This document shows positions 14,488 through 31,035 of a stretch of 40,848 nt of DNA, piece after piece; positions within the stretch are counted from its first letter, which is position 1, and each line of letters starts with the position of its first letter. The position numbers and the translations under genes are program-made. The DNA is taken from IMG/VR virus record IMGVR_UViG_2778261067_000009; one strand, written 5' to 3'. The DNA is from a virus (Duplodnaviria; Heunggongvirae; Uroviricota; Caudoviricetes). The notes beneath the pieces were generated by a model. The model was not told where the DNA came from. It ran no database searches and saw only the letters and a program-made list of their open reading frames with translations.

Positions 14488-15185
14488 TGCAGGATATTCA
14501 CGAAGAAAGCCTGAACGAGCTGGTTAAGTCAGAGCAGTCACCGCGGGTGGTGCTCTGGGAAATCGACCTGACAGTGCAGGGCGGTGAGCGGTATTTTTTC
14601 TGCAATGAGCTGAATGAAAAAGGGGAGCCGGTGACCTGGCAGGGGCGTGAATATCAGGCGTACCCGATTGAGGGGAGTGGCTTTGAGATGAACGGAAAGG
14701 GCAGCAGTGCCCGCCCGTCGCTGACAGTGTCCAATCTTTTCGGCCTTGTCACCGGGATGGCGGAGGATTTGCAGAGCCTGGTGGGTGCCACGGTGGTCCG
14801 TCGCCGGGTGTATGCGCGTTTTCTGGATGCGGTGAACTTTGTGGCAGGCAATCCGGAGGCCGACCCGGAGCAGGAGCTGACGGACCGGTGGGTGGTGGAG
14901 CAGATGTCAGCGCTGACGGCCATGACGGCCTCGTTTGTGCTGGCGACACCGACGGAGACGGACGGTGCGCTGTTTCCCGGTCGCATCATGCTGGCGAACA
15001 CCTGTATGTGGGATTACCGGGGCGATGAATGCGGGTATAACGGTCCGGCAGTGGCGGATGAGTTCGACAACCCCACCACGGATATCCGGAAGGACAGATG
15101 CAGTAAATGCATGCGCGGGTGTGAGATGCGCGGCATGGTGGCTAATTTCGGCGGTTTCCTTTCCATTAATAAACTTTCGCAGTAA
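14487..15185 (+). CDS. L: Minor tail protein L
   Basis: VVLWEIDLT..GGERYFFCNE.NEKGEPVTWQGR.YQ.YPI.GSGFE matches lambda L. Confidence 0.95.
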   Translation: MQDIHEESLNELVKSEQSPRVVLWEIDLTVQGGERYFFCNELNEKGEPVTWQGREYQAYPIEGSGFEMNGKGSSARPSLTVSNLFGLVTGMAEDLQSLVGATVVRRRVYARFLDAVNFVAGNPEADPEQELTDRWVVEQMSALTAMTASFVLATPTETDGALFPGRIMLANTCMWDYRGDECGYNGPAVADEFDNPTTDIRKDRCSKCMRGCEMRGMVANFGGFLSINKLSQ

Positions 15186-15195
15186 ATCCCGGTTT

Positions 15196-15939
15196 ATGAC
15201 ACAGACTGAATCAGCGATTCTGGCGCATGCCCGGCGGTGTGCGCCTGCGGAGTCGTGCGGCTTCGTGATAAGCACGCCGGAGGGGGAGTGGTATATCCCT
15301 TGTGTGAATATTTCTGCAGAGCCGGAGGCGTATTTTCGTATCGCACCGGAAGACTGGCTGCGGGCAGAGATGCAGGGGGAGATTGTGGCACTGGTCCACA
15401 GTCATCCCGGTGGGCTGCCCTGGCTGAGCGAGGCTGACCGGCGGCTGCAGATAAAAAGCGCACTGCCCTGGTGGCTGGTCTGCCGGGGTGACATTCACAA
15501 ATTCCGCTGCGTGCCGCACCTGACGGGACGGCGCTTTGAGCACGGGGTGACGGACTGTTACACCCTGTTCCGGGATGCATACCATCTGGCGGGGACTGAA
15601 ATGCCGGATTTTCATCGCGAGGATGACTGGTGGCGCAACGGTCAGAACCTTTACCTGGACAATATGGCGGTCACCGGCTTTTACCGGGTGCCCCTGTCCT
15701 CTGCACAGGCGGGCGATATTCTGCTGTGCTGCTTTGGTGCTTCGGTACCGAACCATGCCGCCATTTACTGCGGCAACGGTGAGCTGCTTCACCATCTGCC
15801 TGAACAACTGAGTAAACGGGAGAGGTATTCCGAAAAATGGCAACGACGAACGCATTCTGTCTGGCGTCACCGCCACTGGCACGCATCTGCCTTCACGGGG
15901 ATTTGCAACGATTTGGCCGCCGCCTCAGCCTGTATGTGA
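15196..15939 (+). CDS. K: Tail assembly protein K (JAB/MPN plus NlpC/P60-like)
   Basis: RISPEDWLRAEMQGEIVALVHSHPGGLPWLSEADRRLQ and HGVTDCYTLFRDAYHLAG match lambda K; start chosen at ATG 15196 within the longer ORF. Confidence 0.9.
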   Translation: MTQTESAILAHARRCAPAESCGFVISTPEGEWYIPCVNISAEPEAYFRIAPEDWLRAEMQGEIVALVHSHPGGLPWLSEADRRLQIKSALPWWLVCRGDIHKFRCVPHLTGRRFEHGVTDCYTLFRDAYHLAGTEMPDFHREDDWWRNGQNLYLDNMAVTGFYRVPLSSAQAGDILLCCFGASVPNHAAIYCGNGELLHHLPEQLSKRERYSEKWQRRTHSVWRHRHWHASAFTGICNDLAAASACM

Positions 15940-16517
15940 ACACGGCAGCGGAAGCCATTCGCGCCCTGTCGATGCAGATGCCGGGCTTTCGCTGTCAGAT
16001 GAACGAAGGCTGGTACCAGATACGTATTGCCGGTGAGGATACCGCGCCGGAGGCGGTGTATGCCCGTCTTCACGAACAACTGGGTGAGGGAGCGGTCATC
16101 CACATTGTGCCGCGACTGGCCGGAGCCGGGGGAAATGGTGTTTTTCAGGTGGTGCTGGGGGCAGCAGCCATCGTGGGCTCTTTCTTCACCGCCGGTGCAA
16201 CGATGGCGTTGTGGGGCGCAGCCCTGAGTGCCGGAGGGCTGACTGCCACCACGATGCTGTTCTCACTGGGTGCCAGCATGATACTGGGTGGTGTGGCCCA
16301 GATGCTGGCCCCGAAGGCAAAGACGCCGGAGTACAAAAGCACGGATAACGGTAAACAGAACACGTATTTTTCGTCACTGGACAACATGATTGCCCAGGGT
16401 AACCCGATGCCGGTGCCTTACGGTGAAATGCTGGTTGGTTCACGACGGATATCCCAGGACATCAGCACCCGTGATGAGGGCGGTGACGGGAAAGTGGTGG
16501 TTATCGGGCGGGGATGA
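15837..16517 (+). CDS. I: Tail assembly protein I
   Basis: ARICLHGDLQRFGRR...IHIVPR.AGA...GVFQ.VLGAAAI.GSFFTAGAT and GKQNTYFSSLDNM.AQGN match lambda I. Confidence 0.9.
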   Translation: MATTNAFCLASPPLARICLHGDLQRFGRRLSLYVNTAAEAIRALSMQMPGFRCQMNEGWYQIRIAGEDTAPEAVYARLHEQLGEGAVIHIVPRLAGAGGNGVFQVVLGAAAIVGSFFTAGATMALWGAALSAGGLTATTMLFSLGASMILGGVAQMLAPKAKTPEYKSTDNGKQNTYFSSLDNMIAQGNPMPVPYGEMLVGSRRISQDISTRDEGGDGKVVVIGRG

Positions 16518-16562
16518 AAATAAAAAAATCCCGCAGAGTCAGCGGAGCTGCGGGAGAGAACG

Positions 16563-16682
16563 ATGAAGATTAACGTTATGGAGTTATTTTTCAGGCATCA
16601 AAAAAGTAACGCAGCGTCATTATTGCGGCTACAGGCAATTTGCAGAAATGTGAAGAATTTCAGAAATTTTATTCCGTCATGA
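16563..16682 (+). CDS. Small hypothetical ORF (39 aa) inserted between tail genes I and J
   Basis: ATG 16563 preceded by GGGAGAG at about -8; followed at once by a strong terminator; lambda has no I-J gap as recalled; protein MKINVMELFFRHQKSNAASLLRLQAICRNVKNFRNFIPS has no family I recognise. Confidence 0.3.
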   Translation: MKINVMELFFRHQKSNAASLLRLQAICRNVKNFRNFIPS

Positions 16683-16683
16683 C

Positions 16684-16714
16684 ACAGGCACCCTCCGGGG
16701 TGCCTGTTGTTTTT
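16684..16714 (+). terminator. Rho-independent terminator (10 bp GC-rich stem, 4 nt loop, T-run)
   Basis: ACAGGCACCC-TCCG-GGGTGCCTGT followed by TGTTTTT. Confidence 0.65.
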
Positions 16715-16757
16715 GGGCATAAACAGATTCAGACATCAGACAGGAGAGGGGGACAGA

Positions 16758-19700
16758 GTGGGTAAAGGGGGCGGCAAGGGGCACACACCGCGTGAGGCGA
16801 AGGACAATCTCAAGTCAACGCAGATGATGAGCGTGATTGATGCCATCGGTGAGGGACCGGTGGAAGGCCCGGTGAAGGGACTGCAGAGTATTCTGGTGAA
16901 CAAAACCCCCCTGACGGACACGGACGGTAATCCCGTGATACACGGTGTGACCGCCGTCTGGCGTGCCGGGGAGCAGGAGCAGACACCGCCGGAAGGCTTT
17001 GAGTCCTCCGGGGCGGAAACCGCACTGGGTGTGGAGGTGACGAAGGCAAAGCCGGTGACGCGCACCATCACGTCAGCGAACATTGACCGTCTGCGGGTCA
17101 CCTTCGGGGTGCAGTCACTGGTGGAGACCAGCTCAAAGGGTGACCGTAATCCCTCTTCTGTCCGGCTGCTGATTCAGCTTGAGCGTAACGGTAACTGGGT
17201 GACGGAGAAGGATGTCACTATTAACGGCAAGACCACCTCGCAGTACCTGACGTCGGTGATTCTGAATAATCTCCCTGAGCGCCCCTTTAACATCCGGGTG
17301 GTCAGGGTGACGGCGGACAGTACCACGGACCAGCTGCAGAACAGAACGCTGTGGTCGTCATACACCGAAATCATCGATGTGAAACAGTGCTACCCGAACA
17401 CGGCCATTGTGGGGCTGCAGGTGGATGCGGAGCAGTTCGGTGGCCAGCAGATGGTGGTGAACTACCATATCCGCGGCCGCATCATTCAGGTGCCGTCAAA
17501 CTATGACCCGGAAAAACGCACCTACAGCGGTATCTGGGACGGGAGTCTGAAACCGGCATACAGCAATAACCCGGCCTGGTGCCTGTGGGACATGCTGACC
17601 CACCCGCGCTACGGGATGGGAAAACGCCTGGGGGCCGCGGATGTGGACAAGTGGGCTCTGTATGCCATCGGGCAGTACTGCGACCAGACGGTTCCGGATG
17701 GTTTCGGGGGCACAGAGCCGCGGATGACCTTTAATGCGTACCTGTCACAGCAGCGTAAGGTGTGGGATGTCCTGGGGGATTTCTGCTCGGCGATGCGCTG
17801 TATGCCGGTATGGAACGGCCAGACGCTGACGTTCGTTCAGGACCGTCCGTCGGATGTGGTGTGGCCGTACACCAACAGCGATGTGGTGGTGGATGATAAC
17901 GGCGTGGGGTTCCGCTACAGCTTCAGTGCCCTGAAGGACCGGCACACGGCGGTGGAGGTGAATTACACCGACCCGCAGAACGGCTGGCAGACCTCCACTG
18001 AACTGGTGGAAGACCCGGACGCCATCCTGCGCTACGGGCGCAACCTGCTGAAGATGGATGCGTTCGGCTGTACCAGCCGCGGTCAGGCCCACCGTGCCGG
18101 ACTGTGGGTGATAAAGACCGAACTGCTGGAAACGCAGACGGTGGATTTCACGCTCGGGTCTCAGGGGCTGCGGCACACACCCGGTGACATCATTGAAATC
18201 TGTGATAACGACTATGCCGGGACCCTGACCGGCGGACGCATCCTGTCCATCGATGCCGCCAGCCGCACACTGACGCTGGACCGTGAGGTGACACTGCCGG
18301 AAGCAGGTACATCGACGGTGAACCTGATTAACGGCAGCGGTAAGCCGGTGCGCGTGGACATCACTGCACACCCCGCCCCTGACCGGATACAGGTCAGCGT
18401 CCTGCCTGATGGCGTGGCGACATACGGTGTGTGGGGACTCTCCCTGCCGTCACTGCGTCGTCGCCTGTTCCGCTGTGTTTCCATCCGGGAAAACACGGAC
18501 GGCACCTTTGCCATCACGGCGGTGCAGCATGTGCCGGAAAAAGAAGCCATTGTGGATAACGGGGCCCGCTTTGAGCCGATGTCCGGCTCACTGAACAGCG
18601 TCATCCCGCCGGCAGTGCAGCACCTCACGGTGGAGGTGAGTGCCTCAGACGGCCAGTATCTGGCGCTGGCGAAATGGGACACGCCGCGGGTGGTGAAGGG
18701 CGTGCGCTTCAGTCTGCGCCTGACCAGTGGCAGTGGTGAGAACAGCCGCCTGGTGACCAGCGCCATCACGGCGGACACGGAGTACCGTTTCAGTGGCCTG
18801 CCGCTCGGGGAATACACCCTGACGGTCAGGGCGATAAACAGCTACGGCCAGCAGGGCGAACCTGCCACCACCACATTCCGGATTAATGCACCGGCGGCAC
18901 CGGCCAGCATTGAACTGACGCCGGGCTATTTTCAGATAACGGTGGTCCCGCATCCTGCGGTGTATGACCCGACGGTACAGTATGAATTCTGGTTCTCAGA
19001 AAAACGCATCACGGACACGGCACAGGTGGAAACCTCTGCCCGTTATCTGGGTACCGGCAGCCAGTGGAGCGTCTCCGGCCCGCACATTAAGCCCGGGAAG
19101 GATTTCTGGTTTTATGTGCGCAGCGTCAACCTGGTGGGGAAATCTGCGTTTGTGGAGGCCAGCGGGCAGGCCAGCAATGATGGTGAAGGGTATCTGGAAA
19201 TTTTCCGTGGGCTGATAGATGAGGCGCTGCTGGGGAAGGCACTGAAAGAGCGTATTGATGCGTCAGCCCTGCGTACTGAGGTCACGCAACTGGAAGAAGA
19301 CATCCGCCAGCGACTGGAGACGGATGTTGCGGAAGTGACCCGAAAAATCGGGGAGGCGGAAAACAGCCTCACGCAGCTGGTTGCGAAAAAGAATGAGGAC
19401 CAGACGCTGGCCATCGCGCAGGTGAGTCAGCAGGTGGACCGGGTGAGCAGTGAAATCACACAGACCGTCAGCCAGAGCACGGAGGAAAACGCCAGGCAGA
19501 TAGCGCAGGTCCGCCAGTACGTGGATGACAAAGGGAGTGAAATCACCTCGACCACGGATAAAAAGCTGGAAGACCAGAGCGCCACCATACAGCAGATACA
19601 GCAGGTCCAGTCAGACACGAATGATGAGCTGGCAGCGCTGTACATGCTGAAGGTACAGAAAACGAAAAACGGCATTCCGTATGTTGCCGGTATTGGTGCG

Positions 19701-20444
19701 GGGATTGAGGATGCTGATGGCCAGACGCTGAGCAATATTCTGCTGCAGGCGGACCGTATTGCGATGATTACCCCGGAGAACGGCAACACCACGCCGCTGT
19801 TTGTGGCGCAGGGGAATCAGCTGTTTATGAACGACGTGTTCCTGAAGCGACTGTTTGCAGTGAGCATCACCTCGTCCGGCAATCCCCCGACGTTCTCCCT
19901 GACGCCGGAGGGCAGGCTGACGGCCCGCAATGCGGACATCAGCGGACATATCAGTGCGAACTCGGGCACGCTGAATAATGTCGTGATAGCGGAGAACTGC
20001 ACGATAAATGGCACGCTGAAAGCGGAGAACATTATTGGTGATCTGGTGAAATGTGCCGGGGTGGCTTTTCCGGTGGATGGTAGTCACCTTGCGAACGGTA
20101 CACTAACGCTGACGGTGTATGACGATCACAGCTTTGACCGGCAGATTATAATCCCGCCGATAATCTATGTCGGGTCAAAACAGGAATCCCGCACCAGTAA
20201 TGACATCTGGACAGAGTGCTTCCTGCATGTTGATCAGAACGGACGCCGGATTTATTCAGGCAGGTCAGTGGCAGAGCCGGGAATTTTCAGCGGGATCATC
20301 GATATGCCAGCTGGCGGTGGTCATATCACCCTGAGTTTTACCGTGAGCTCACGGCGTCAGAATAACAGTTGGGGCAGTTCACGTATCAGTAACCTTCAGG
20401 CGATAGTGGTGAAGAAAAACAGCGCGGGGATCAGCATCCGCTGA
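16758..20444 (+). CDS. J: Tail tip/central fibre protein J (host specificity)
   Basis: [22 protein letters not shown]...; long stretches match lambda J ([65 protein letters not shown]); GTG start 16758 with AGGAGAGG upstream. Confidence 0.95.
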
Positions 20445-20783: not shown

Positions 20784-20879
20784 GAAACCGTGGCGGAGGA
20801 GTGTACCTTTCCCGCCGACCGGTTGCTGAGGGTGATCAGCCGGATGGCACCTTTTTAACATCAATAAATCACAAATTTA

Positions 20880-20913
20880 CCGCAGGCCGGGAAACCGGTC
20901 CTGCGGTTTTTTT
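20880..20913 (+). terminator. Rho-independent terminator between hok-like gene and tail fibre gene
   Basis: CCGCAGGCCGGGAAACCGGTCCTGCGG followed by TTTTTTT. Confidence 0.65.
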
Positions 20914-20926
20914 ATGGAGGAAATCC

Positions 20927-22195
20927 ATGGCAGTCAGAATATCGGGTGTGCTGAAGGACGGGGCCGGTAAGCCGGTACCGGGATGCACGATAGAGCTGAA
21001 AGCGCGCCGCACAACGGAGACGGTGATTGTCACCACGGTGGCGTATGGTCAGCCGGGGGAAACCGGCAGTTACAGTATGGATGTTGAGCCGGGGTTGTAC
21101 CGGGTGACGCTGAACACGGAAGGGTACGCGCCGTCATATGTGGGTGACATTCTGGTGAAGGCGGAGTCTGCACCGGGAACGCTGAATAAATTTCTGATGG
21201 ACCTGGAGGACGCACAGTATTACCCGAAAGCCCTTGCAGAGCTGGAAGCGGTGGCCGCGGAAATCCTGAAACGTGCGGAAGCGTCAGCGGCGAGTGCAGA
21301 GGAAGCGAAGAAACGGGCAGAGAATGCGCGGGGACCGAAGGGTGATAAGGGAGACACGGGGCCACAGGGTATTCCCGGGCCAAAAGGCGATACCGGCGAG
21401 CGTGGGCCAAAGGGTGAGCGTGGTGAGGCAGGCCCACAGGGGGTACAGGGGCCACGGGGTGAAACCGGACCCGTGGGACCGCAAGGAGAGGCGGGTATTC
21501 AGGGGCCTGCTGGCCCTGCGGGCCCGCGGGGTGAAACCGGAGCCAGAGGCGAAAAAGGAGAGCCGGGAGATCCAGGAGGACCTCCGGGACCAAAAGGTGA
21601 CACTGGCCCCAGAGGGGAGCCGGGGCCTCAGGGCCCGGCAGGTCCGAGGGGACCTGCCGGAGAGAGAGGGCCGCAAGGATTGCAGGGTGTGGCAGGGGAG
21701 AGAGGCGATACAGGTCCGGCTGGTCCACAGGGTATACCTGGACCTCCGGGGCCAACAGGTAGCGTCGGTCCTAAGGGGGAAAAAGGCGAGCCTGGTGATC
21801 GAGGTCCACAGGGTGCTACCGGCCCCAGAGGACCACAAGGGGAAAAAGGGGATAAAGGTGACCCCGGCCCGGCAGGCCCTGCCGGTGAGCGGGGGCCGAA
21901 AGGTGATACCGGGCCGACGGGCCCCGCAGGGAAGGATGGCGCAGATTCACAGGCGAACAGAGTGCGTATCAGCGAGAAAACAGAAGTCACCTCCAGCACA
22001 GTCGTTTTCCCCTCTTTTTATGGCGGTGCGCATGGGGAAAATGCAGCCCCTGATGGCGCTGTGATTCTGAATATCAGGACGGCTCAGGTATCACTGACGA
22101 ACGGCAATTTAGGGGAAGCCTGTGTCACTGCTGTCACTTACGGCTTCCTTCAGGTTCACGATGGCAGCCAGTGGGTTACGGTGAAACATGAATAA
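20927..22195 (+). CDS. stf: Side tail fibre protein with collagen-like Gly-X-Y repeat shaft (lambda Stf-like N-terminus)
   Basis: N-terminus [28 protein letters not shown] matches lambda Stf [28 protein letters not shown]; ~200 aa of G-X-Y triplets; GGAGG RBS; start at 20927 inside the longer ORF. Confidence 0.85.
21332..21940 (+). repeat. Collagen-like Gly-X-Y triplet repeat region within the tail fibre gene (one single-residue interruption at GGPPGP)
   Basis: ~67 consecutive G-X-Y triplets rich in Pro/Lys/Glu; produces spurious long ORFs in other frames and on the opposite strand. Confidence 0.85.
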
Positions 22196-23592: not shown

Positions 23593-24456
23593 CTAATCAT
23601 CTATTTCGGTTGCCTTCTTATTCAGCAGACGAGAAGCGCGCCAGTAAACCAGCAACATCAGGCCCATTACGATAGTCAGCGTAATGCTGGTGGCTGCACC
23701 AAACGGCCAGTCACGAATATTGAGGAACTGTACCTTGATGACGTTACCGATCAGCAGGTTTTTCGCACCGCCCATCAGGTCGGACACATAGAACAGGCCC
23801 ATCGCTGGCAGCATTACCAGCAGACATCCGGCAATAATTCCCGGCATCGTCAGTGGGATAATGATGCGGATGAAGGTCTGCAACTTGCTGGCACCGAGAT
23901 CGCGCGCCGCCTCAAGCAACGGCTTATCCAGTTTTTCGATACTGGAGTACAGCGGCATCACCATAAACGGCAGCAGAATGTAAACCAGACCGATAATCAC
24001 CGCACTAGGCGTGAACATGATGCGAATTGGTGTATCGATAACGCCCAGCCAGAGCAAAAACTCGTTGAGATAGCCTTTGGTGCTGAGGAAAATTTTCAGC
24101 CCGTAAATACGAATCAATGAGTTGGTCCAGAACGGAACAATCAGCAGAAACAGCAGCAGCGGACGCACCTTGTGTGGCAGCTTCGCCAGAAACCAGGCAA
24201 AAGGATAGCCCAGCACCAGGCAGGCGAGGGTGGCGATCAGCGCCATATTCAGCGAGTGCAATAGCACTTCAAAATAAAGCGGATCGAGCAGACGCGTGTA
24301 GTTATCCAGCGTAAAGACCATTTTGACGAAACTGGCGTCGTCGCGGGTCAAAAAGCTGGTGCCAATGATCATCAGGTTGGGCAGAAAGACAAACAACACA
24401 AGCCAACCGACAATAGTGACAATCACTACATTCTGGAACTTACTTGTGTTCTTCAT
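23593..24456 (-). CDS. potB: Spermidine/putrescine ABC transporter permease PotB
   Basis: Full-length match to E. coli PotB as recalled; overlaps potA stop; followed on the - strand by ATGATT then divergent sequence where potC should start. Confidence 0.95.
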
Positions 24457-25576
24457 CAGCCAGTACGACCTCCCAGCTTTCTACCCAATTAATGGCCATT
24501 TTTTGGTCGAGAGAGTGGTCAAAGTCAGGATCGTCTTCATTGAAGAATTCGCTGACCATCACCATCTTGCCATTTTCCAGTTCAACAACCGACTCCAGCG
24601 TCATACCTTTGTAGTTACGCTCGCGAACGTAACCAATCAGCCCTTCAGCGTGGTTGTCGTCGTTAATCTCTTCAACACGTAAGTCTTCCGGGCGCAGCAG
24701 AACATGCAGTTTTTGCCCCGGTTCAACGCCGAAGTTAACGTAGATATTACACTCGCGGCCTTCAACGTTGGCGCGTACGCGCTGCTCGTCGAGACGTTCG
24801 ATGACCGTGGCATTAAACATATTGATTTCACCGATAAACCCAGCAACAAACAGGTTTTTCGGCTCTTCGTAGATTTCACGCGGCGTGCCGTCTTGCTCAA
24901 TGCGACCATCGCGCATCACCACAATCCTGTCCGACATGGTGAGTGCTTCTTCCTGGTCGTGAGTCACGAAGACGAATGTAATGCCAAGCTTACGCTGTAG
25001 CGCTTTCAGCTCGTTCTGCATCTGTTTACGCAGTTTGTAATCCAGCGCTGAGAGCGACTCATCCAGCAACAACAGACGAGGCTTGTTAACCACCGCGCGA
25101 GCAATGGCGACGCGTTGCTGTTGACCACCAGAAAGCTGATGCGGTTTACGTTGAGCGAAGGTTTCCAGCTGCACCATCCGCAGGGCTTCCATCACGCGGG
25201 GCGTAATTTCAGCTGCGGGGGTTTTTTGCATGCGCAACCCAAAGGCCACATTTTCGAACACGGTCATGTGGGGGAAAAGTGCGTAGCTTTGGAAAACAGT
25301 GTTCACATAGCGGTTTTCCGCCGGAACGTGGGTGATGTCCTCGTTATCCAGCATGATGCGTCCGGAATCAACAGTTTCCAGACCTGCAATCAGGCGAAGA
25401 ACGGTTGTTTTACCGCAGCCAGAAGGGCCAAGCAGCGTGAGGAACTCGCCATTGTTGATAGTCAGATCCAGCTGGGGAATGACCTCTTTACCATCAAAGC
25501 ATTTGCGAATTCCCGCCAATTGCACCAGCGGTGAAAGCGAACTCGGTTGTTTATTCAATTTTTTACTCTGTCCCAT
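24440..25576 (-). CDS. potA: Spermidine/putrescine ABC transporter ATPase PotA
   Basis: 378 aa; Walker [13 protein letters not shown] signature [14 protein letters not shown]; matches E. coli PotA. Confidence 0.97.
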
Positions 25577-25825
25577 GTAAACGCAACGGATGGCTTACCG
25601 ATGCGGGGTTTGTGGTTAACCACCTTGGTGACTCTTAATGAGGGCGGTAATTCTACGGCAAACCGCTTGAATCGCCAATCTTTGTTGTGAATTACTGGCT
25701 TAGCTTTATATTCATTAAGGTAATGCTGATAAATATTCCCGCTTGCAGGGGTAAAAGTGACCTGACGCAATATTTGTCTTTTCTTGCTTCTTAATAATGT
25801 TGTCACAAAAAGTGAGGGTGACTAC

Positions 25826-27052
25826 ATGGATAAACTACTTGAGCGATTTTTGAACTACGTGTCTCTGGATACCCAATCAAAAGCCGGGGTGAGACAGGTT
25901 CCCAGCACGGAAGGCCAATGGAAGTTATTGCATCTGCTGAAAGAGCAGCTCGAAGAGATGGGGCTTATCAATGTGACCTTAAGTGAGAAGGGCACGTTGA
26001 TGGCGACGTTACCGGCTAACGTCCCAGGCGATATCCCCGCGATTGGCTTTATTTCTCATGTGGATACCTCACCGGATTGCAGCGGCAAAAATGTGAATCC
26101 GCAAATCGTTGAAAACTATCGCGGTGGCGATATTGCGCTGGGTATCGGCGATGAAGTTTTATCACCGGTTATGTTCCCGGTGCTGCATCAGCTACTGGGT
26201 CAGACGCTGATTACCACCGATGGTAAAACCTTGTTAGGTGCCGATGATAAAGCTGGTATTGCAGAAATCATGACCGCGCTGGCGGTATTACAACAAAAAA
26301 ACATTCCGCATGGTGATATTCGTGTCGCCTTTACCCCGGATGAAGAAGTGGGCAAAGGGGCGAAACATTTTGATGTTGACGCCTTCGATGCCCGCTGGGC
26401 TTACACCGTTGATGGTGGTGGCGTAGGCGAACTGGAGTTTGAAAACTTCAACGCCGCGTCGGTCAATATCAAAATTGTCGGTAACAATGTTCACCCGGGC
26501 ACGGCGAAAGGAGTGATGGTAAATGCGCTTTCGCTGGCGGCACGTATTCATGCGGAAGTTCCGGCAAATGAAAGCCCGGAAATGACAGAAGGCTATGAAG
26601 GTTTCTATCACCTGGCGAGCATGAAAGGCACCGTTGAACGGGCCGATATGCACTACATCATTCGTGATTTCGACCGTAAACAGTTTGAAGCGCGTAAACG
26701 TAAAATGATGGAGATCGCCAAAAAAGTGGGCAAAGGGTTACATCCTGATTGCTACATTGAACTGGTGATTGAAGACAGTTACTACAATATGCGCGAGAAA
26801 GTGGTTGAGCATCCGCATATTCTCGATATCGCTCAGCAGGCGATGCGTGACTGCGATATTGAGCCGGAACTGAAACCGATCCGCGGTGGTACCGACGGCG
26901 CGCAGTTGTCGTTTATGGGATTACCGTGTCCGAACCTGTTCACTGGCGGTTACAACTACCATGGTAAGCATGAATTTGTGACTCTGGAAGGTATGGAAAA
27001 AGCGGTGCAGGTGATCGTCCGTATTGCCGAGTTAACGGCGCAACGGAAGTAG
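25826..27052 (+). CDS. pepT: Peptidase T (tripeptide aminopeptidase)
   Basis: [21 protein letters not shown]... matches E. coli PepT; start at ATG 25826 with GAGGGTG RBS inside the longer ORF. Confidence 0.95.
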
Positions 27053-27058
27053 CGAAAA

Positions 27059-27084
27059 GGGATGCGGCATGTGATGCCGCATCC
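27059..27084. terminator. Stem-loop between convergent pepT and roxA (likely bidirectional terminator)
   Basis: GGATGCGGCA-TGTGA-TGCCGCATCC palindrome in the 47 bp gap between convergent genes. Confidence 0.5.
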
Positions 27085-27099
27085 AGCTTAACTTCAAAC

Positions 27100-28221
27100 T
27101 TACCCTTCGAAGAACCAATACCCGCTATTGACCAGCGCCGCGAGCATCGCGAGGAATGACGGATCTTCCAGCGCATCGCCAAAATTCTCCGCGGTCAGCG
27201 CAATGTTGCTGGCGAGCGCATCCAGTGCCGGACGGTGCGGGGAATCGATCTTCTCACCATTGGCATACACGTCGTCGCCAATGCGCAATACGCGCAGACC
27301 ACCCAGACGCACCAGCACATCACCTTGTTTCAGCGCATCGTAGATTTCATCCGGCTGATAAGGCGGCTCTGGCGGCGCGATATCCAGTTCATGACGTGAC
27401 TGGGATATAAACTCGCCAAACCATTGCTTAAAGTGTTCCGGCTGGTTGATCAATTCGAGCATCATCTCACGCAGTTTATCCATCTCTTGCGGCAGAACGT
27501 CCGCAGGATGAGCGCGAGGTGGAACATCAGGATCGCTGTAGTAGTTGCCGCCCAGTTCACGTTGCAGCACATAATCGGCAAATCCGCTAATCAGTTCCCG
27601 CGTATTTGGCGCGCGAAAACCCACGGAATAGTTCATCGCATTTTCCAGCGCGTAGCCTTCATGGGGGAATCCTGGCGGAATATAAAGAATATCGCCTGGC
27701 TCCAGTTCTTCATCAATGATGGCTTCGAACGGATCGACCTGTAACAGATCCGGGTGCGGGCAGTGCTGTTTCATTTGCAGCTTTTCGCCCACTCGCCAGC
27801 GACGACGTCCGGTACCCTGAATGATAAACACGTCGTACTGATCGAGATGTGGGCCGACGCCGCCGCCAGGTACGGAAAAAGAGATCATCAGGTCATCAAT
27901 ACGCCAGTCCGGCAGTTCACGGAACGGCCGCATCAGCGAGGCGCTCGGCTCATGCCAGTGGTTCACTGCCTGTACCAGTAACGACCAGTTGGTTTCACCG
28001 AGATGATCGTAGCTTTCGAACGGGCCGTGGCTGACCTGCCATTTGCCATCCTGGTGACTGACCAGTCGACTGTCGACTTCGCTTTCCATCGCCAGACCCG
28101 CCAACTCGTCTGGAGAGATCGGGTCAATAAAATTATTAAAGCCGCGTTTTAACACCACCGGGCGTTTCTGCCAGTGACGTTCAAGAAAATCGGGCCAGTT
28201 AAGAGTGAGTTGGTATTCCAT
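27100..28221 (-). CDS. roxA: Ribosomal protein uL16 arginine hydroxylase RoxA (YcfD), JmjC/cupin
   Basis: MEYQLTLNWPDFLERHWQKRPVVLKRGF... matches E. coli YcfD/RoxA; start taken at the Met that gives 373 aa. Confidence 0.9.
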   Translation of the reverse strand: MEYQLTLNWPDFLERHWQKRPVVLKRGFNNFIDPISPDELAGLAMESEVDSRLVSHQDGKWQVSHGPFESYDHLGETNWSLLVQAVNHWHEPSASLMRPFRELPDWRIDDLMISFSVPGGGVGPHLDQYDVFIIQGTGRRRWRVGEKLQMKQHCPHPDLLQVDPFEAIIDEELEPGDILYIPPGFPHEGYALENAMNYSVGFRAPNTRELISGFADYVLQRELGGNYYSDPDVPPRAHPADVLPQEMDKLREMMLELINQPEHFKQWFGEFISQSRHELDIAPPEPPYQPDEIYDALKQGDVLVRLGGLRVLRIGDDVYANGEKIDSPHRPALDALASNIALTAENFGDALEDPSFLAMLAALVNSGYWFFEG

Positions 28222-28380
28222 GTTAAGCATCCACAGGCTGGTATCTGCAACCGATTATAACGGATGCTTAACGTAATGCGTGAAGTATGGACATATTTTA
28301 TCAATTAGTGTTTTTTGCCGTTTCATAATGTTTCAGATTGTTCATTATGTTTTTGATTATAAACAGATTTGTGATTTTCC

Positions 28381-28448
28381 TTGTTCCAGCTTGTTTCACG
28401 TTGTAGCCCTTTGTGCAACGATCGGTGTAGTTAATGGTGTAGTTAATT
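28381..28448. repeat. attL: Left direct repeat of the island (attL candidate), core CGGTGTAGTTAATGGTGTAGT
   Basis: TTGTTCCA..TTGTTTCA...GTGCAACGATCGGTGTAGTTAATGGTGTAGTTAATT recurs with few changes at 39249-39306. Confidence 0.55.
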
Positions 28449-29699
28449 GTGATGACCGGAATCAAAATTATGAGCAGAGCACTTAACAAACTGAGCGATA
28501 CACAGCTGAGGAAAATCAACGGCACACCCGCCCAAAAAACAGCCTTTCTTAATGACGGTGGAAACCTGAGCGTCAGGCATTCAACCAGTGGCCTTTTAAC
28601 CTGGTATTTCACTTACAGGGCCGGAACGGGAAGGGGGGCACCACCGGAACGCATTAAGCTGGGAAATTATCCTGATCTGAGCCTGAAATCAGCCAGGGAA
28701 AAAGCCGCCCAGTGTCGCGCATGGCTGGCAGAGGGGAAAAATCCACGTCATGAGCTTAATTACACCGTACAGGAAGCGTTAAAGCCGGTAACGGTTGGCG
28801 ATGCGCTCACCTACTGGCTTGAGTCGTACGCAAAGGAAAACCGCGTGGATTATGCCGCCCTGAAAAAGCGCCTTAATAATCACGTAATACAGCACATTGG
28901 TGCTATGCCGCTGGATAAATGCGAGCTACGGCACTGGCTGGCCTGTTTTGACCAGGTGGCAAAGCGAACGCCTGTTACTGCCGGATTCTTGCTACAGACG
29001 TGCAAACAGGCGCTTAAGTTCTGCCGGAGGCGGCGCTATGCAATCAGCAACGTTCTTGATGATATGAGTGTGGCGGACGTTGGGAAAAAACCGGATATAA
29101 GCGAGCGTGTCTTAAGCACCAAAGAACTGGGCGAATTATTGCAGGCACTGGACAAAAAAATATTCTCCCCCTACTACATCGCGTTAATCCGCCTCCTGAT
29201 TGTGTTCGGATGCCGGACGGTAGAACTGAGGTTATCGGAGATCAGCGAGTGGGATTTTACCGAAATGCTCTGGACCGTGCCGAAAGAACACAGCAAAACG
29301 AAGGTGGCAATATTCCGGCCCATACCGGAAGCAATACTGCCGTTCGTCACGCAGCTGGTGGAGCAGAACAGGCACACGGGCTTATTGCTGGGGGAAGTGA
29401 AACAGGAAACAAGCGTGTCGCAGTACGGCAGATTAGCGCACAGGAGGCTAAATCACCCTCACTGGTCACTACATGACATCCGGCGCACCTTTACAACGAT
29501 GCTGAGCGATTTAGGCGTGGATCCTCACGTCGTGGAGCAGCTTACAGGCCACCAGATGCCAGGAATGCAGCGAGTTTATAATCATTCCCGTTATCTGGAT
29601 GCTAAACGCAATGCGCTGGATATGTGGATGGAGCGGTTAGGGATACTGGCGGGAACACATGAAAACGTAACCGCACTACCAGCAGCCAGAAGAAAATAA
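28449..29699 (+). CDS. int: Tyrosine-type site-specific integrase (P4/CP4-57-like family)
   Basis: 416 aa; C-terminal catalytic region with ...HDIRRTFTTMLSDLGVDPHVVEQLTGHQ...VYNHSRY; abuts the left repeat; true start may be the internal Met at 28470. Confidence 0.9.
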   Translation: MMTGIKIMSRALNKLSDTQLRKINGTPAQKTAFLNDGGNLSVRHSTSGLLTWYFTYRAGTGRGAPPERIKLGNYPDLSLKSAREKAAQCRAWLAEGKNPRHELNYTVQEALKPVTVGDALTYWLESYAKENRVDYAALKKRLNNHVIQHIGAMPLDKCELRHWLACFDQVAKRTPVTAGFLLQTCKQALKFCRRRRYAISNVLDDMSVADVGKKPDISERVLSTKELGELLQALDKKIFSPYYIALIRLLIVFGCRTVELRLSEISEWDFTEMLWTVPKEHSKTKVAIFRPIPEAILPFVTQLVEQNRHTGLLLGEVKQETSVSQYGRLAHRRLNHPHWSLHDIRRTFTTMLSDLGVDPHVVEQLTGHQMPGMQRVYNHSRYLDAKRNALDMWMERLGILAGTHENVTALPAARRK

Positions 29700-30064
29700 T
29701 TTTTTTCGTGTTTTTTCAGTATGCGCATACTGGATAAGCACACAGATACAACGGCGAACAATGTGAAACAACGTGGAACAACCACGAACAAGAGGCGAAA
29801 AAGTACACAGGTTTATAAGTGACTGATTTTATTTGTGTGACTGTTTTTTTATACATTAGCGAATAACGCTTTAACGCGTGAGAAAAAAGGCATGAAACAA
29901 TATTTTATGCCTTTGTATTAACATGAATTTAAAAGATTTTATTCTTACTGTTTCATTTTCTGTAAATCATACATCCTCAATATTTGCCATTCATCACTCT
30001 AGCGGGAACAATACGACACAATAAGACACCTGATGACTCTTTAAGAAACGAAAGGGGGGCAATA

Positions 30065-30253
30065 GTGTTAAGCACTGATCGGTTTATACGTGAAAAAGAA
30101 TGCGAAAAACTAACCGGCCTTAGCCGTACGTGTCGCTACCGCCTGGAAAAGGCCGGACAATTCCCATCACGTCGTAAACTTGGCGGTCGTTCCGTTGGCT
30201 GGTCTTTATCCGAGGTTCTGGCCTGGAAGGATAGCTGCAAGGCAGTTCATTAA
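30065..30253 (+). CDS. alpA: AlpA-family transcriptional regulator/excisionase-like protein
   Basis: 62 aa HTH protein ...LTGLSRTCRYRLEKAGQFPSRRKLGGRSVGWSLSEVLAW... typical of AlpA; GTG start 30065 with AAAGGGGGG RBS. Confidence 0.75.
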   Translation: MLSTDRFIREKECEKLTGLSRTCRYRLEKAGQFPSRRKLGGRSVGWSLSEVLAWKDSCKAVH

Positions 30254-30522
30254 TCACGCTGGCGGCACGCAGCCGCCACACATCAATCATCTGAACACAG
30301 AGCTATAACCATGAAGATTGAATATACGCCAGAACGTGGGCGGGGATTCGTTCGCCCTGGTGAAACTGAAAAACAACAAAATTGGGGTTTTTCAGACATA
30401 AAAAAAGCGGCCCCGAAATGGAGCCGCCTTTCTGAACAGATAACCCGCTGCGCCGTTTGTGTGTGTGATCCCAAACATAAGAACGGCAATGATAGTCGCT
30501 ATCAGGCTGGTGGGCAATGCTA

Positions 30523-30711
30523 TCAGTCTGGTTCAGTTCGTTGCCATACCTGCAATGAGCGCTTTTCCCTGTACTCTTTAAGGAATTGCTCAAGGGCAAA
30601 AGCACATGGCGCGAATCTTTCTGATTCATGCTCTATCTTTCTGCGCCGTCTTTTCCGTGCCGGTGATAATGTTTTGGTCAATTCTTTATCGGTCATTGTG
30701 TTGTCCTGCAT
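30523..30711 (-). CDS. Hypothetical small basic protein (62 aa)
   Basis: ORF downstream of the RHH gene on the - strand; no convincing RBS; KRRRRK basic patch; could be spurious. Confidence 0.25.
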   Translation of the reverse strand: MQDNTMTDKELTKTLSPARKRRRRKIEHESERFAPCAFALEQFLKEYREKRSLQVWQRTEPD

Positions 30712-30753
30712 AGCAATGCGCCGTAATACCTTACACCACGGCGCTGATGGTGA

Positions 30754-30933
30754 TTACTCTGGTTCTTTGGCCTTGCGCCGCTGGCGATATTCAACTTCTC
30801 GTTTTAATGCTGCAGTAACAAATTGCCCCGTACTTTCGCCAGGCATTTTTACCGCCTCAACATTGTTCATAACTTCATGCGGAACCCTTGCCGCAACGGT
30901 TTGTGATTTTGCGTTTACTGCTTTTGTCGCCAT
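30754..30933 (-). CDS. Small ribbon-helix-helix-like DNA-binding protein (59 aa), candidate island repressor
   Basis: MATKAVNAKSQTVAARVPHEVMNNVEAVKMPGESTGQFVTAALKREVEYRQRRKAKEPE; beta-strand then two-helix pattern typical of Arc/MetJ/CopG RHH; GAGGGG RBS; divergent from the operator/promoter region; below the 60 aa cut-off of the supplied ORF track. Confidence 0.45.
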   Translation of the reverse strand: MATKAVNAKSQTVAARVPHEVMNNVEAVKMPGESTGQFVTAALKREVEYRQRRKAKEPE

Positions 30934-30983
30934 GTGGTGTACCCCTCATAAAAAACAAATGCAGTATGCAGGAAAAAAAACAA

Positions 30984-31035
30984 GTGTTCAACACTTGACG
31001 TGTTTAACACCTGGGTTTAAATTGGTGTTCAACAC
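30984..31035. promoter_or_regulatory. Operator/promoter region: three copies of the 11 bp palindrome GTGTT(C/T)AACAC overlapping a TTGACG -35 and TTTAAAT -10 candidate
   Basis: Palindromes at 30984-30994, 31000-31010, 31025-31035; lies between the divergent RHH gene and the icd-like operon. Confidence 0.5.

Follow-up and report, generated by a model that had tools for sequence, protein, structure and literature searches.

What, if anything, is encoded between the tail genes I and J of a lambdoid prophage? The question arises in the IMG/VR virus record IMGVR_UViG_2778261067_000009, a stretch of 40,848 nucleotides from a tailed phage (Caudoviricetes), analyzed at its full length and called the window in the following, in which I and J are separated by a gap of 240 bp (16518–16757). 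An earlier note, made from the letters alone, had described in this gap two strong hairpins and a 39-codon open reading frame (ORF), all of which coordinates and folding bear out, the limits of the gap being exact, and had taken it for a moron (a small gene with a terminator) or a small-RNA locus embedded in the late operon. We are confident that the gap carries, on the minus strand, a self-contained gene for an Hfq-dependent small RNA of the family named EcOnc22/23/24 in enterohemorrhagic Escherichia coli (EHEC) and PasB in enteropathogenic E. coli (EPEC). The element is already known, being catalogued under both names, and is not new. The idea of an autonomous small unit, here with a putative promoter and a terminator of its own, has thereby held, but not its placement on the plus strand nor the protein.

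Anatomy of the small-RNA gene

The features of the unit are the following.

16522–16612, minus strand: gene for the small RNA, very probably a member of the EcOnc22/23/24 = PasB family; primary transcript predicted as GCGUUACUUUUUUGAUGCCUGAAAAAUAACUCCAUAACGUUAAUCUUCAUCGUUCUCUCCCGCAGCUCCGCUGACUCUGCGGGAUUUUUUU, about 76–91 nt
16522–16554, minus strand: Rho-independent terminator of the small RNA; stem CCCGCAG/CTGCGGG (16554–16548 with 16536–16530), then A and U7 (16528–16522)
16538–16598, minus strand: equivalent of the EcOnc22 Hfq peak obtained by cross-linking and analysis of cDNA (CRAC); spans the ARN motif, the pre-terminator segment and the 5′ arm of the terminator
16619–16624, minus strand: −10 box for transcription of the small RNA; AATAAT in the window, mostly TATAAT among the variants, with a weak −35 in the window variant
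16649–16664, no strand assigned: conserved upstream box TGTGA-N6-TCAGA (on the minus strand TCTGA-N6-TCACA); CRP-like, a candidate element

The left one of the two hairpins (arms 16530–16536 and 16548–16554; −15.6 kcal/mol, z −3.9 against shuffles) is preceded on the plus strand by A7 and followed there by no T's. Because of this A-run ahead of it, the hairpin is taken for a Rho-independent terminator acting on the minus strand; the terminator scan calls it as such, its GC stem has 7–8 bp and it ends 5 nt from the stop codon of I. The earlier note had seen a GC hairpin overlapping a ribosome-binding site, and the overlap with GGGAGAG before the ATG at 16563 indeed exists, but the hairpin is the minus-strand terminator and the supposed ribosome-binding site is the terminator's 3′ arm. 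About 65 nt upstream of the terminator on the minus strand lies the −10-like hexamer (16624–16619). The transcript predicted from it starts with the G at 16612, ends in the U-run 16528–16522 and is 91 nt long (fold −20.6 kcal/mol, z −3.1).

The body of the small RNA consists, in this order, of a U-run, an (ARN)3 motif (AAAAAUAAC at 16591–16583, minus strand), a variable middle, a conserved segment CUCC...UUAAUCUUC and the terminator hairpin with U7. The conserved segment, which is single-stranded and lies inside the stretch equivalent to the CRAC peak, is the predicted seed. A GC stem, a long U tail, a single-stranded region upstream and an (ARN)3 motif, the features of an Hfq-binding module, are all present, and judged by its sequence the minus-strand unit has the anatomy of an Hfq-binding small RNA.

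Identity with EcOnc22, EcOnc23 and EcOnc24 of EHEC

In 2014 Tree et al. listed EcOnc22, EcOnc23 and EcOnc24 as orphan sites of Hfq binding, all three homologous to one another (Tree et al., 2014, Table S2; PMC4104026). EcOnc22 is located in Sp15, the Shiga toxin 1 (Stx1) phage, and was detected in northern blots as an RNA of ~85 nt that was destabilized in a Δhfq strain; the Hfq-binding sites EcOnc23 and EcOnc24 are located in Sp14 and Sp11, respectively (PMC4104026). In the genome of the EHEC strain E. coli O157:H7 Sakai, I and J are 240 bp apart in Sp15, in Sp14 and in Sp11, and all three gaps are near-identical to that in the window. The tail genes of Sakai lie on the minus strand and the EcOnc RNAs on the plus strand, and the RNAs are antisense to the tail genes as in the window. 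The phage record of Sp15, VT1-Sakai, is 95–96% identical to the window over the region, and the small RNA of the window agrees with EcOnc22 of Sakai in 89 of 91 positions (97.8%).

The published CRAC peak of EcOnc22 (2902714–2902774) refers to an older version of the Sakai genome, and the shift between the versions was therefore calibrated in two ways. Small RNAs of known sequence bound it (AgvB1 139–145 nt, HnrS 132–149 nt), and the read sequences from the cross-linking, ligation and sequencing of hybrids (CLASH) with RNase E give it directly as 135–137 nt (Waters et al.; PMC5286369). After this shift the Hfq peak of EcOnc22 coincides with 16598→16538 of the window. Taken at face value, the coordinates of Tree et al. 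put the peak on the right-hand hairpin, a placement that was dropped given the version shift of ~135–145 nt. The CLASH fragments of EcOnc22/23/24 (GCCTGAAAAATAACTCCATAACGTTAATCTTCA) correspond exactly to 16596→16564 on the minus strand (PMC5286369). In supplementary file 4 of the same study the EcOnc22 locus (2902729–2902766) is labeled "asxR2", which is probably the product of a find-and-replace of "EcOnc2" by "asxR" that also affected EcOnc22–24; anybody searching the mislabeled CLASH table for EcOnc22 would miss the asxR2 rows.

Relationship to PasB of EPEC

In 2021 Pearl Mizrahi et al. described from EPEC E2348/69 the small RNA PasB, 83 nt long, which is transcribed from the minus strand (1466343→1466261) of prophage PP6 (Pearl Mizrahi et al., 2021, Table S6; PMC8550237). 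Its abundance changed by a log2 factor of −6.8 in the Δhfq mutant, and RNA interaction by ligation and sequencing (RIL-seq) found Hfq-dependent chimeras of PasB with 37 partner RNAs (PMC8550237). The northern probe, AATCCCGCAGTGATCGCGGAGCT, is the complement of the terminator of the small-RNA family and covers the homologous hairpin. In the genome of E2348/69 PasB lies in a 240-bp gap between the end of tail assembly protein I (1466255) and the start of gpJ (1466496), the locus aligns with the window along its whole length, and the RNAs are 75% identical (76 of 101 aligned columns).

In the accessible part of their 2026 preprint, Zhu, Shabalina and Storz describe the PasB gene as lying within an operon that encodes structural proteins of the phage and report a copy in phage Stx2a_WGPS6 (NC_049945), which is also among the best matches of the window (10.64898/2026.05.13.724894). 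EcOnc is not mentioned in that part of the text, and the PasB entry of the 2021 table gives no EHEC homologue, unlike the entries of PasA and PasD (PMC8550237). Near-identical and homologous copies of the window's gene thus give rise to an RNA of ~83–85 nt that accumulates in lysogens, is bound to Hfq and RNase E and is Hfq dependent (PMC4104026; PMC5286369; PMC8550237).

Distribution and annotation

Relatives were collected from annotated phages, from contigs of E. albertii and from 120 viral contigs that a search with the terminator as pattern had brought up. Among the resulting 68 unique sequences, 65 are related variants, whereas 3 match the pattern without being related. The comparison of I–J junctions across lambdoid phages, which the earlier note had suggested, showed the small-RNA module to be conserved, but not the 39-codon ORF. 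The gap sequence is present in 802 of 5426 complete E. coli genomes (~15%), at a median of 3 places per genome and almost always on the chromosome, and in 147 of 50,697 phage records, all of them E. coli lambdoid or Stx-converting phages. Most phage copies are 60–80% identical over the module, in keeping with a family whose frame is conserved and whose middle varies. Among the small RNAs that prophages bring into pathogenic E. coli, the RNA is one of the more widespread.

A genome-collection scan with the N-terminus of J returned mostly lambda itself and was informative for the lambda gap and for two E. albertii variants. It also touched short contigs (L008–L039) in assemblies labeled Streptomyces, Neobacillus, Chromatium, Shewanella, Bradyrhizobium and others, which carry I–J junctions of the lambda type with a J 75–78% identical to that of the window and, in most cases, with a 60-bp gap identical to that of lambda. 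They look like contamination of those assemblies with lambda DNA.

None of the 147 phage records has a small-RNA feature under the match, and in the 30 RefSeq rows of E. coli genomes among the matches listed, J is the only feature under it. Rfam gave no match to the whole window at the gathering threshold and, when the gap was searched at E values up to 10, only matches at chance level (atpB with 13.6 bits versus 37.4, NsiR1 with 12.9 versus 39). A full-text search of the literature for the terminator sequence returned unrelated papers only. The matter is mainly one of annotation: without an Rfam model, gene callers and readers of the raw sequence are drawn to the spurious 39-codon ORF.

Promoter, upstream box and 5′ end

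A −10 hexamer (T/A/G/C)ATAAT stands at a fixed position in 59 of the 65 unique variants. In a variant from E. albertii (L006) the scan calls a minus-strand promoter, TTTTCA-17-TATAAT, together with the terminator. The upstream box is likewise present in 59 of the 65, at 34 ± 1 nt from the start motif CTGCGTTA, also in every copy of the tandem arrays described below. In the window the CRP-like box, TGTGAAGAATTTCAGA, is centered near −44.5 of the predicted start; canonical CRP sites (TGTGA-N6-TCACA) are centered at −41.5 or −61.5. The reading as a CRP site was not adopted because of this odd spacing and because the single match in the window is not significant. [quoted passage not shown]

Read coverage puts the 5′ end of PasB at ~16596–16597, and the CLASH fragments from EHEC begin there, too. 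This boundary could reflect processing, trimming by RNase or poor coverage of the U-rich 5′ stretch. One CLASH hybrid (PMC5286369, supplementary file 9) consists of ...CACTCTGCGGGATTTTTTT joined directly to GCCTGAAAAATAACTCC...; its first part, which maps antisense to ECs1805 in Sp9, represents the 3′ end of a paralogous copy, and its second part begins at 16596. The hybrid suggests that the RNA really ends after U7 and possibly that it really begins at 16596.

Proposed function

In a lysogen with a silent late operon, the small RNA would be transcribed by host RNA polymerase from a promoter of its own. Hfq would bind to the U tail and the ARN motif, and the single-stranded segment CUCC...UUAAUCUUC before the terminator would serve as the seed that pairs with mRNAs in trans, CUCCAUAACGUUAAUCUUC being the putative pairing stretch. 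The seed proposed for PasB is likewise located just upstream of the terminator.

Several observations weigh against the assignment or loosen it. The evidence for expression, for the size of ~83–85 nt and for Hfq binding comes from the copies in Sakai and E2348/69, and the window's promoter differs from that of Sakai at a few bases. A sigma-70 promoter scan of the window itself called none in the gap on either strand. For the 5′ end there are two candidates: the −10 box points to 16612 (91 nt) and the reads of the homologues to ~16596–16598 (76 nt), and the ~85 nt of the northern blot lie between the two. Rfam contains no model for EcOnc22–24/PasB. When 28 variants were folded to a consensus, the terminator was paired and all the remainder unpaired, neither structure beyond the terminator nor covariation being found; as the terminator stem was the search pattern for the variants, its invariance and the missing covariation are uninformative either way. 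As to targets, EcOnc22 (together with 23 and 24) is entered in a review of 2021 under "northern; Hfq-CRAC; target unknown", and the CLASH hybrids of EcOnc22–24 (with the coding region of yjbJ, ECs4701, ECs5349 and rRNA) comprise 1–2 reads each.

Alternative readings

The ORF that had drawn attention to the gap is

16563–16682, plus strand: 39-codon ORF (MKINVMELFF...), not conserved as coding; its 5′ part is the complement of the conserved segment of the small RNA

Could the gap be a plus-strand moron, with a 39-residue protein translated from the ATG at 16563 behind the ribosome-binding site GGGAGAG and ended by the terminator at 16684–16717? In favor of this, the ORF is preceded at 6 nt by a purine-rich stretch and followed by a terminator, the ATG with the N-terminus MKINV.ELF recurs in about half of the variants, and two phage records have automatic "hypothetical protein" calls within the gap. 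The question was judged by comparison of the variants. The earlier note's ORF is real, but start, frame and substitution pattern are not those of a coding sequence. At the position of the window's ATG the 65 unique variants have ATG (32), ACG (27), ACA (2) or a gap (4), and within the span of the ORF the net change in length relative to the window is not a multiple of 3 in 37 of 64 variants. Substitutions on codon positions 1, 2 and 3 number 531, 757 and 586, without an excess at the third position, and the "proteins" of the variants, 22–62 residues long, share only MKINV.ELF, after which unrelated tails follow. This conserved start is the complement of the segment AACUCC.UAAC.UUAAUCUUCAU of the small RNA. 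Moreover, a Pfam search of the ORF gave no match, the scan found no promoter for it on the plus strand, the RefSeq annotation of one identical locus leaves the 240-bp gap without any feature, and the published Hfq-bound RNA is encoded on the opposite strand. We give the protein next to no credence.

Very improbable, too, is that the gap contains no gene and that its hairpins are solely cis elements of the late mRNA (3′ stabilizers or processing sites for I and J, or a terminator). A GC hairpin before J, though of another sequence each time, is found in lambda and in the phages of the E. albertii type as well, which suggests a cis role of the right-hand hairpin; this can be true beside a small-RNA gene, but the minus-strand −10 box, the upstream box and the A-run before the left hairpin would then be left unexplained, as would the published minus-strand RNA that is Hfq-bound and verified by northern blot. 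Alternatively, the small RNA could act mainly in cis or on look-alike phages, by pairing with the I–J spacer of its own phage or of a co-resident or incoming one with the same cassette, with cleavage by RNase III and altered expression of J or I as a consequence, and convergent late transcription could silence the small-RNA promoter in lytic growth. For this the geometry speaks: the gene lies within the late operon on the opposite strand, its RNA is perfectly complementary to 16522–16612 of the late transcript, and EHEC genomes carry a median of 3 copies, Sakai having three identical ones. However, the complementary stretch begins 5 nt after the stop of I and ends 145 nt before the start of J, so that both ribosome-binding sites lie outside it; the Hfq chimeras of PasB involve many unlinked RNAs, the behavior of a small RNA acting in trans; and the variability of the body between phages fits changing targets in trans. 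We consider it unlikely and prefer the Hfq-dependent small RNA acting in trans.

The right-hand hairpin and the junction in lambda

16684–16717, plus strand: terminator-like hairpin ACAGGCACCC-TCCG-GGGTGCCTGT, then TGTTTTTGGG; 41 nt before J

The second hairpin (16684–16707; 10 pairs, −26.3 kcal/mol, z −5.1, a stability that none of 200 shuffles reached) carries the U-tract on the plus strand, unlike the left one, and is called by the terminator scan. A strong terminator-like hairpin just before J, where the earlier note had placed an intrinsic terminator, is borne out by fold and scan, but it is not part of an insertion, lambda having a hairpin at the same place. Nor are I and J contiguous in lambda, as the earlier note had it: in NC_001416 I extends from 14773 to 15444 and J begins at 15505, 60 bp apart. 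This 60-bp gap holds the GC hairpin AAACCGCC-TGCG-GGCGGTTT, which aligns with the right-hand hairpin of the window. Because lambda has its own hairpin before J and a gap of 60 bp, the extra material in the window amounts to only ~180 bp, on the left side (roughly 16518–16680).

The lambda hairpin is GC-rich, followed by a T-rich stretch shortly before J, and aligned with 16684–16717; it differs in sequence, is weaker (−15.9 kcal/mol, z −1.9) and is not called by the terminator scan. The small-RNA module is absent from lambda. A third type is found in E. albertii, where the hairpin CCCGGTATC-TGCT-GATACCGGG is called a terminator on both strands, and three unrelated hairpin sequences (window type, E. 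albertii type, lambda type) thus occupy the same place. In the loci of the E. albertii type (L006:846–1183 and L007) the small-RNA module is kept, the right part is different and longer, and the gap is 336–343 bp.

By its sequence features the right-hand hairpin is a credible terminator of the plus strand. In the most economical reading it would stop polymerase not modified by Q before J, while Q-modified polymerase would read through, and it may insulate the small-RNA promoter. The earlier note had held that expression of J requires antitermination of the Q type; that Q-modified polymerase would have to pass the hairpin is inferred from the established biology of the lambda late operon.

Tandem arrays and protein genes at the junction

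In some phages (L097:315–1230; also L087:4412–5110 and L092, minus strand) the I–J gap is ~915 bp long and contains four small-RNA modules in tandem, three with the CCCGCAG terminator and one with a different terminator, TCTCCCGT...ACGGGAGA. Each module has its own TGTGA-N6-TCAGA box, its own −10 box and a different middle segment, and the last copy matches the module of the window exactly. The Pas preprint treats multi-copy Pas genes as distal, not tandem (10.64898/2026.05.13.724894). In the accessible parts of the papers on these RNAs we found neither the tandem arrays nor the link between PasB and EcOnc22–24 nor the conserved box.

In six further variants (L005:112–1017, L004, L046, L102, L123 and L142) the gap is ~846 bp long and contains on the minus strand a gene for a Cu,Zn superoxide dismutase (Pfam Sod_Cu, E 3.9e-32). 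This sodC gene, with a terminator hairpin of its own, replaces the promoter block of the small RNA, the body and terminator of which remain downstream. The I–J junction thus accommodates protein-coding morons as well.

A broader proposal, which we regard as rather improbable, is that the I–J junction is a dedicated cassette site for Hfq-dependent small RNAs with exchanged middle and seed segments, up to four in tandem, which might modulate the tail genes of relatives besides host targets. The small RNA is perfectly antisense to the late spacer of phages with the same cassette and might therefore modulate the tail genes of co-resident or incoming relatives.

Neighboring genes in the window

The locus is bounded by

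15837–16517, plus strand: tail assembly gene I, longest ORF; Pfam PF06805 Lambda_tail_I, E 1.4e-16; left boundary
16758–20444, plus strand: tail tip gene J; starts with GTG behind GGAGAGGGGGA; Pfam FNIII-A_GpJ and Phage-tail_3; right boundary

and the order along it is stop codon of I, small-RNA terminator, small-RNA body, small-RNA promoter, plus-strand terminator, J. The stop codon TGA of I occupies 16515–16517; its start is at 15837 in the longest ORF versus 15936 in the RefSeq annotation of the identical gene. The GTG of J at 16758 is the same base as the RefSeq start, and the N-terminus of J aligns with that of lambda J.

The ORF after J (20801–22195) encodes a long collagen-like Gly-X-Y repeat and matches models of Scl/Lcl collagen-like adhesins below their cut-offs, as in the side tail fibers of EHEC prophages. 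The prophage ends at ~22.9–23.6 kb, and beyond it lie host genes, namely potB and potA on the minus strand and then pepT (23596–31336 region). Past pepT, a second tyrosine integrase (28449–29696) and an Icd-like cell-division inhibitor domain (30311–31336) suggest a separate, P4-like integrated element.

Comparison with known systems

The short prophage RNA svsR was excluded as the identity of the window RNA, being located at the 3′ end of cI, as was HnrS, which is EcOnc10–12 in the lysis/late region; AgvB and AsxR were excluded as unrelated in sequence. In architecture AgvB, AsxR and HnrS (EcOnc01, 02 and 10–12) are much alike: short prophage RNAs, each transcribed from a promoter of its own, which have ARN motifs, vary in their 5′ part but conserve the terminator at the 3′ end, and are present in multiple copies via polylysogeny. 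They differ from the window RNA in having no sequence similarity to it, in their moron site, which is downstream of PR′/Q or near the lysis genes, and in that their targets are known (GcvB, FnrS, hha). The sodC morons of prophages share with it the position, as minus-strand inserts with their own signals between I and J, whereas the gap in the window is without a protein gene.

PasB has the I–J junction, strand, predicted promoter architecture, terminator and U-tail in common with the window RNA and differs from it by indels of 6 nt and 1 nt (7 extra nt in PasB) and by substitutions in the middle and in the seed segment (CCUUCACAUUGAUCUUCAUUUG against CCAUAACGUUAAUCUUCAUCG). As the seed segments of the two differ, their targets therefore probably differ as well. 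EcOnc22–24 agree with the window RNA in place, strand, predicted promoter, ARN motif, seed segment and terminator; EcOnc22 is distinguished from it by two changes (at RNA position 3 and in the terminator loop) and by a few in the promoter spacer. PasB of EPEC and EcOnc22–24 of EHEC are variants of one family of the I–J junction with differing seed segments.

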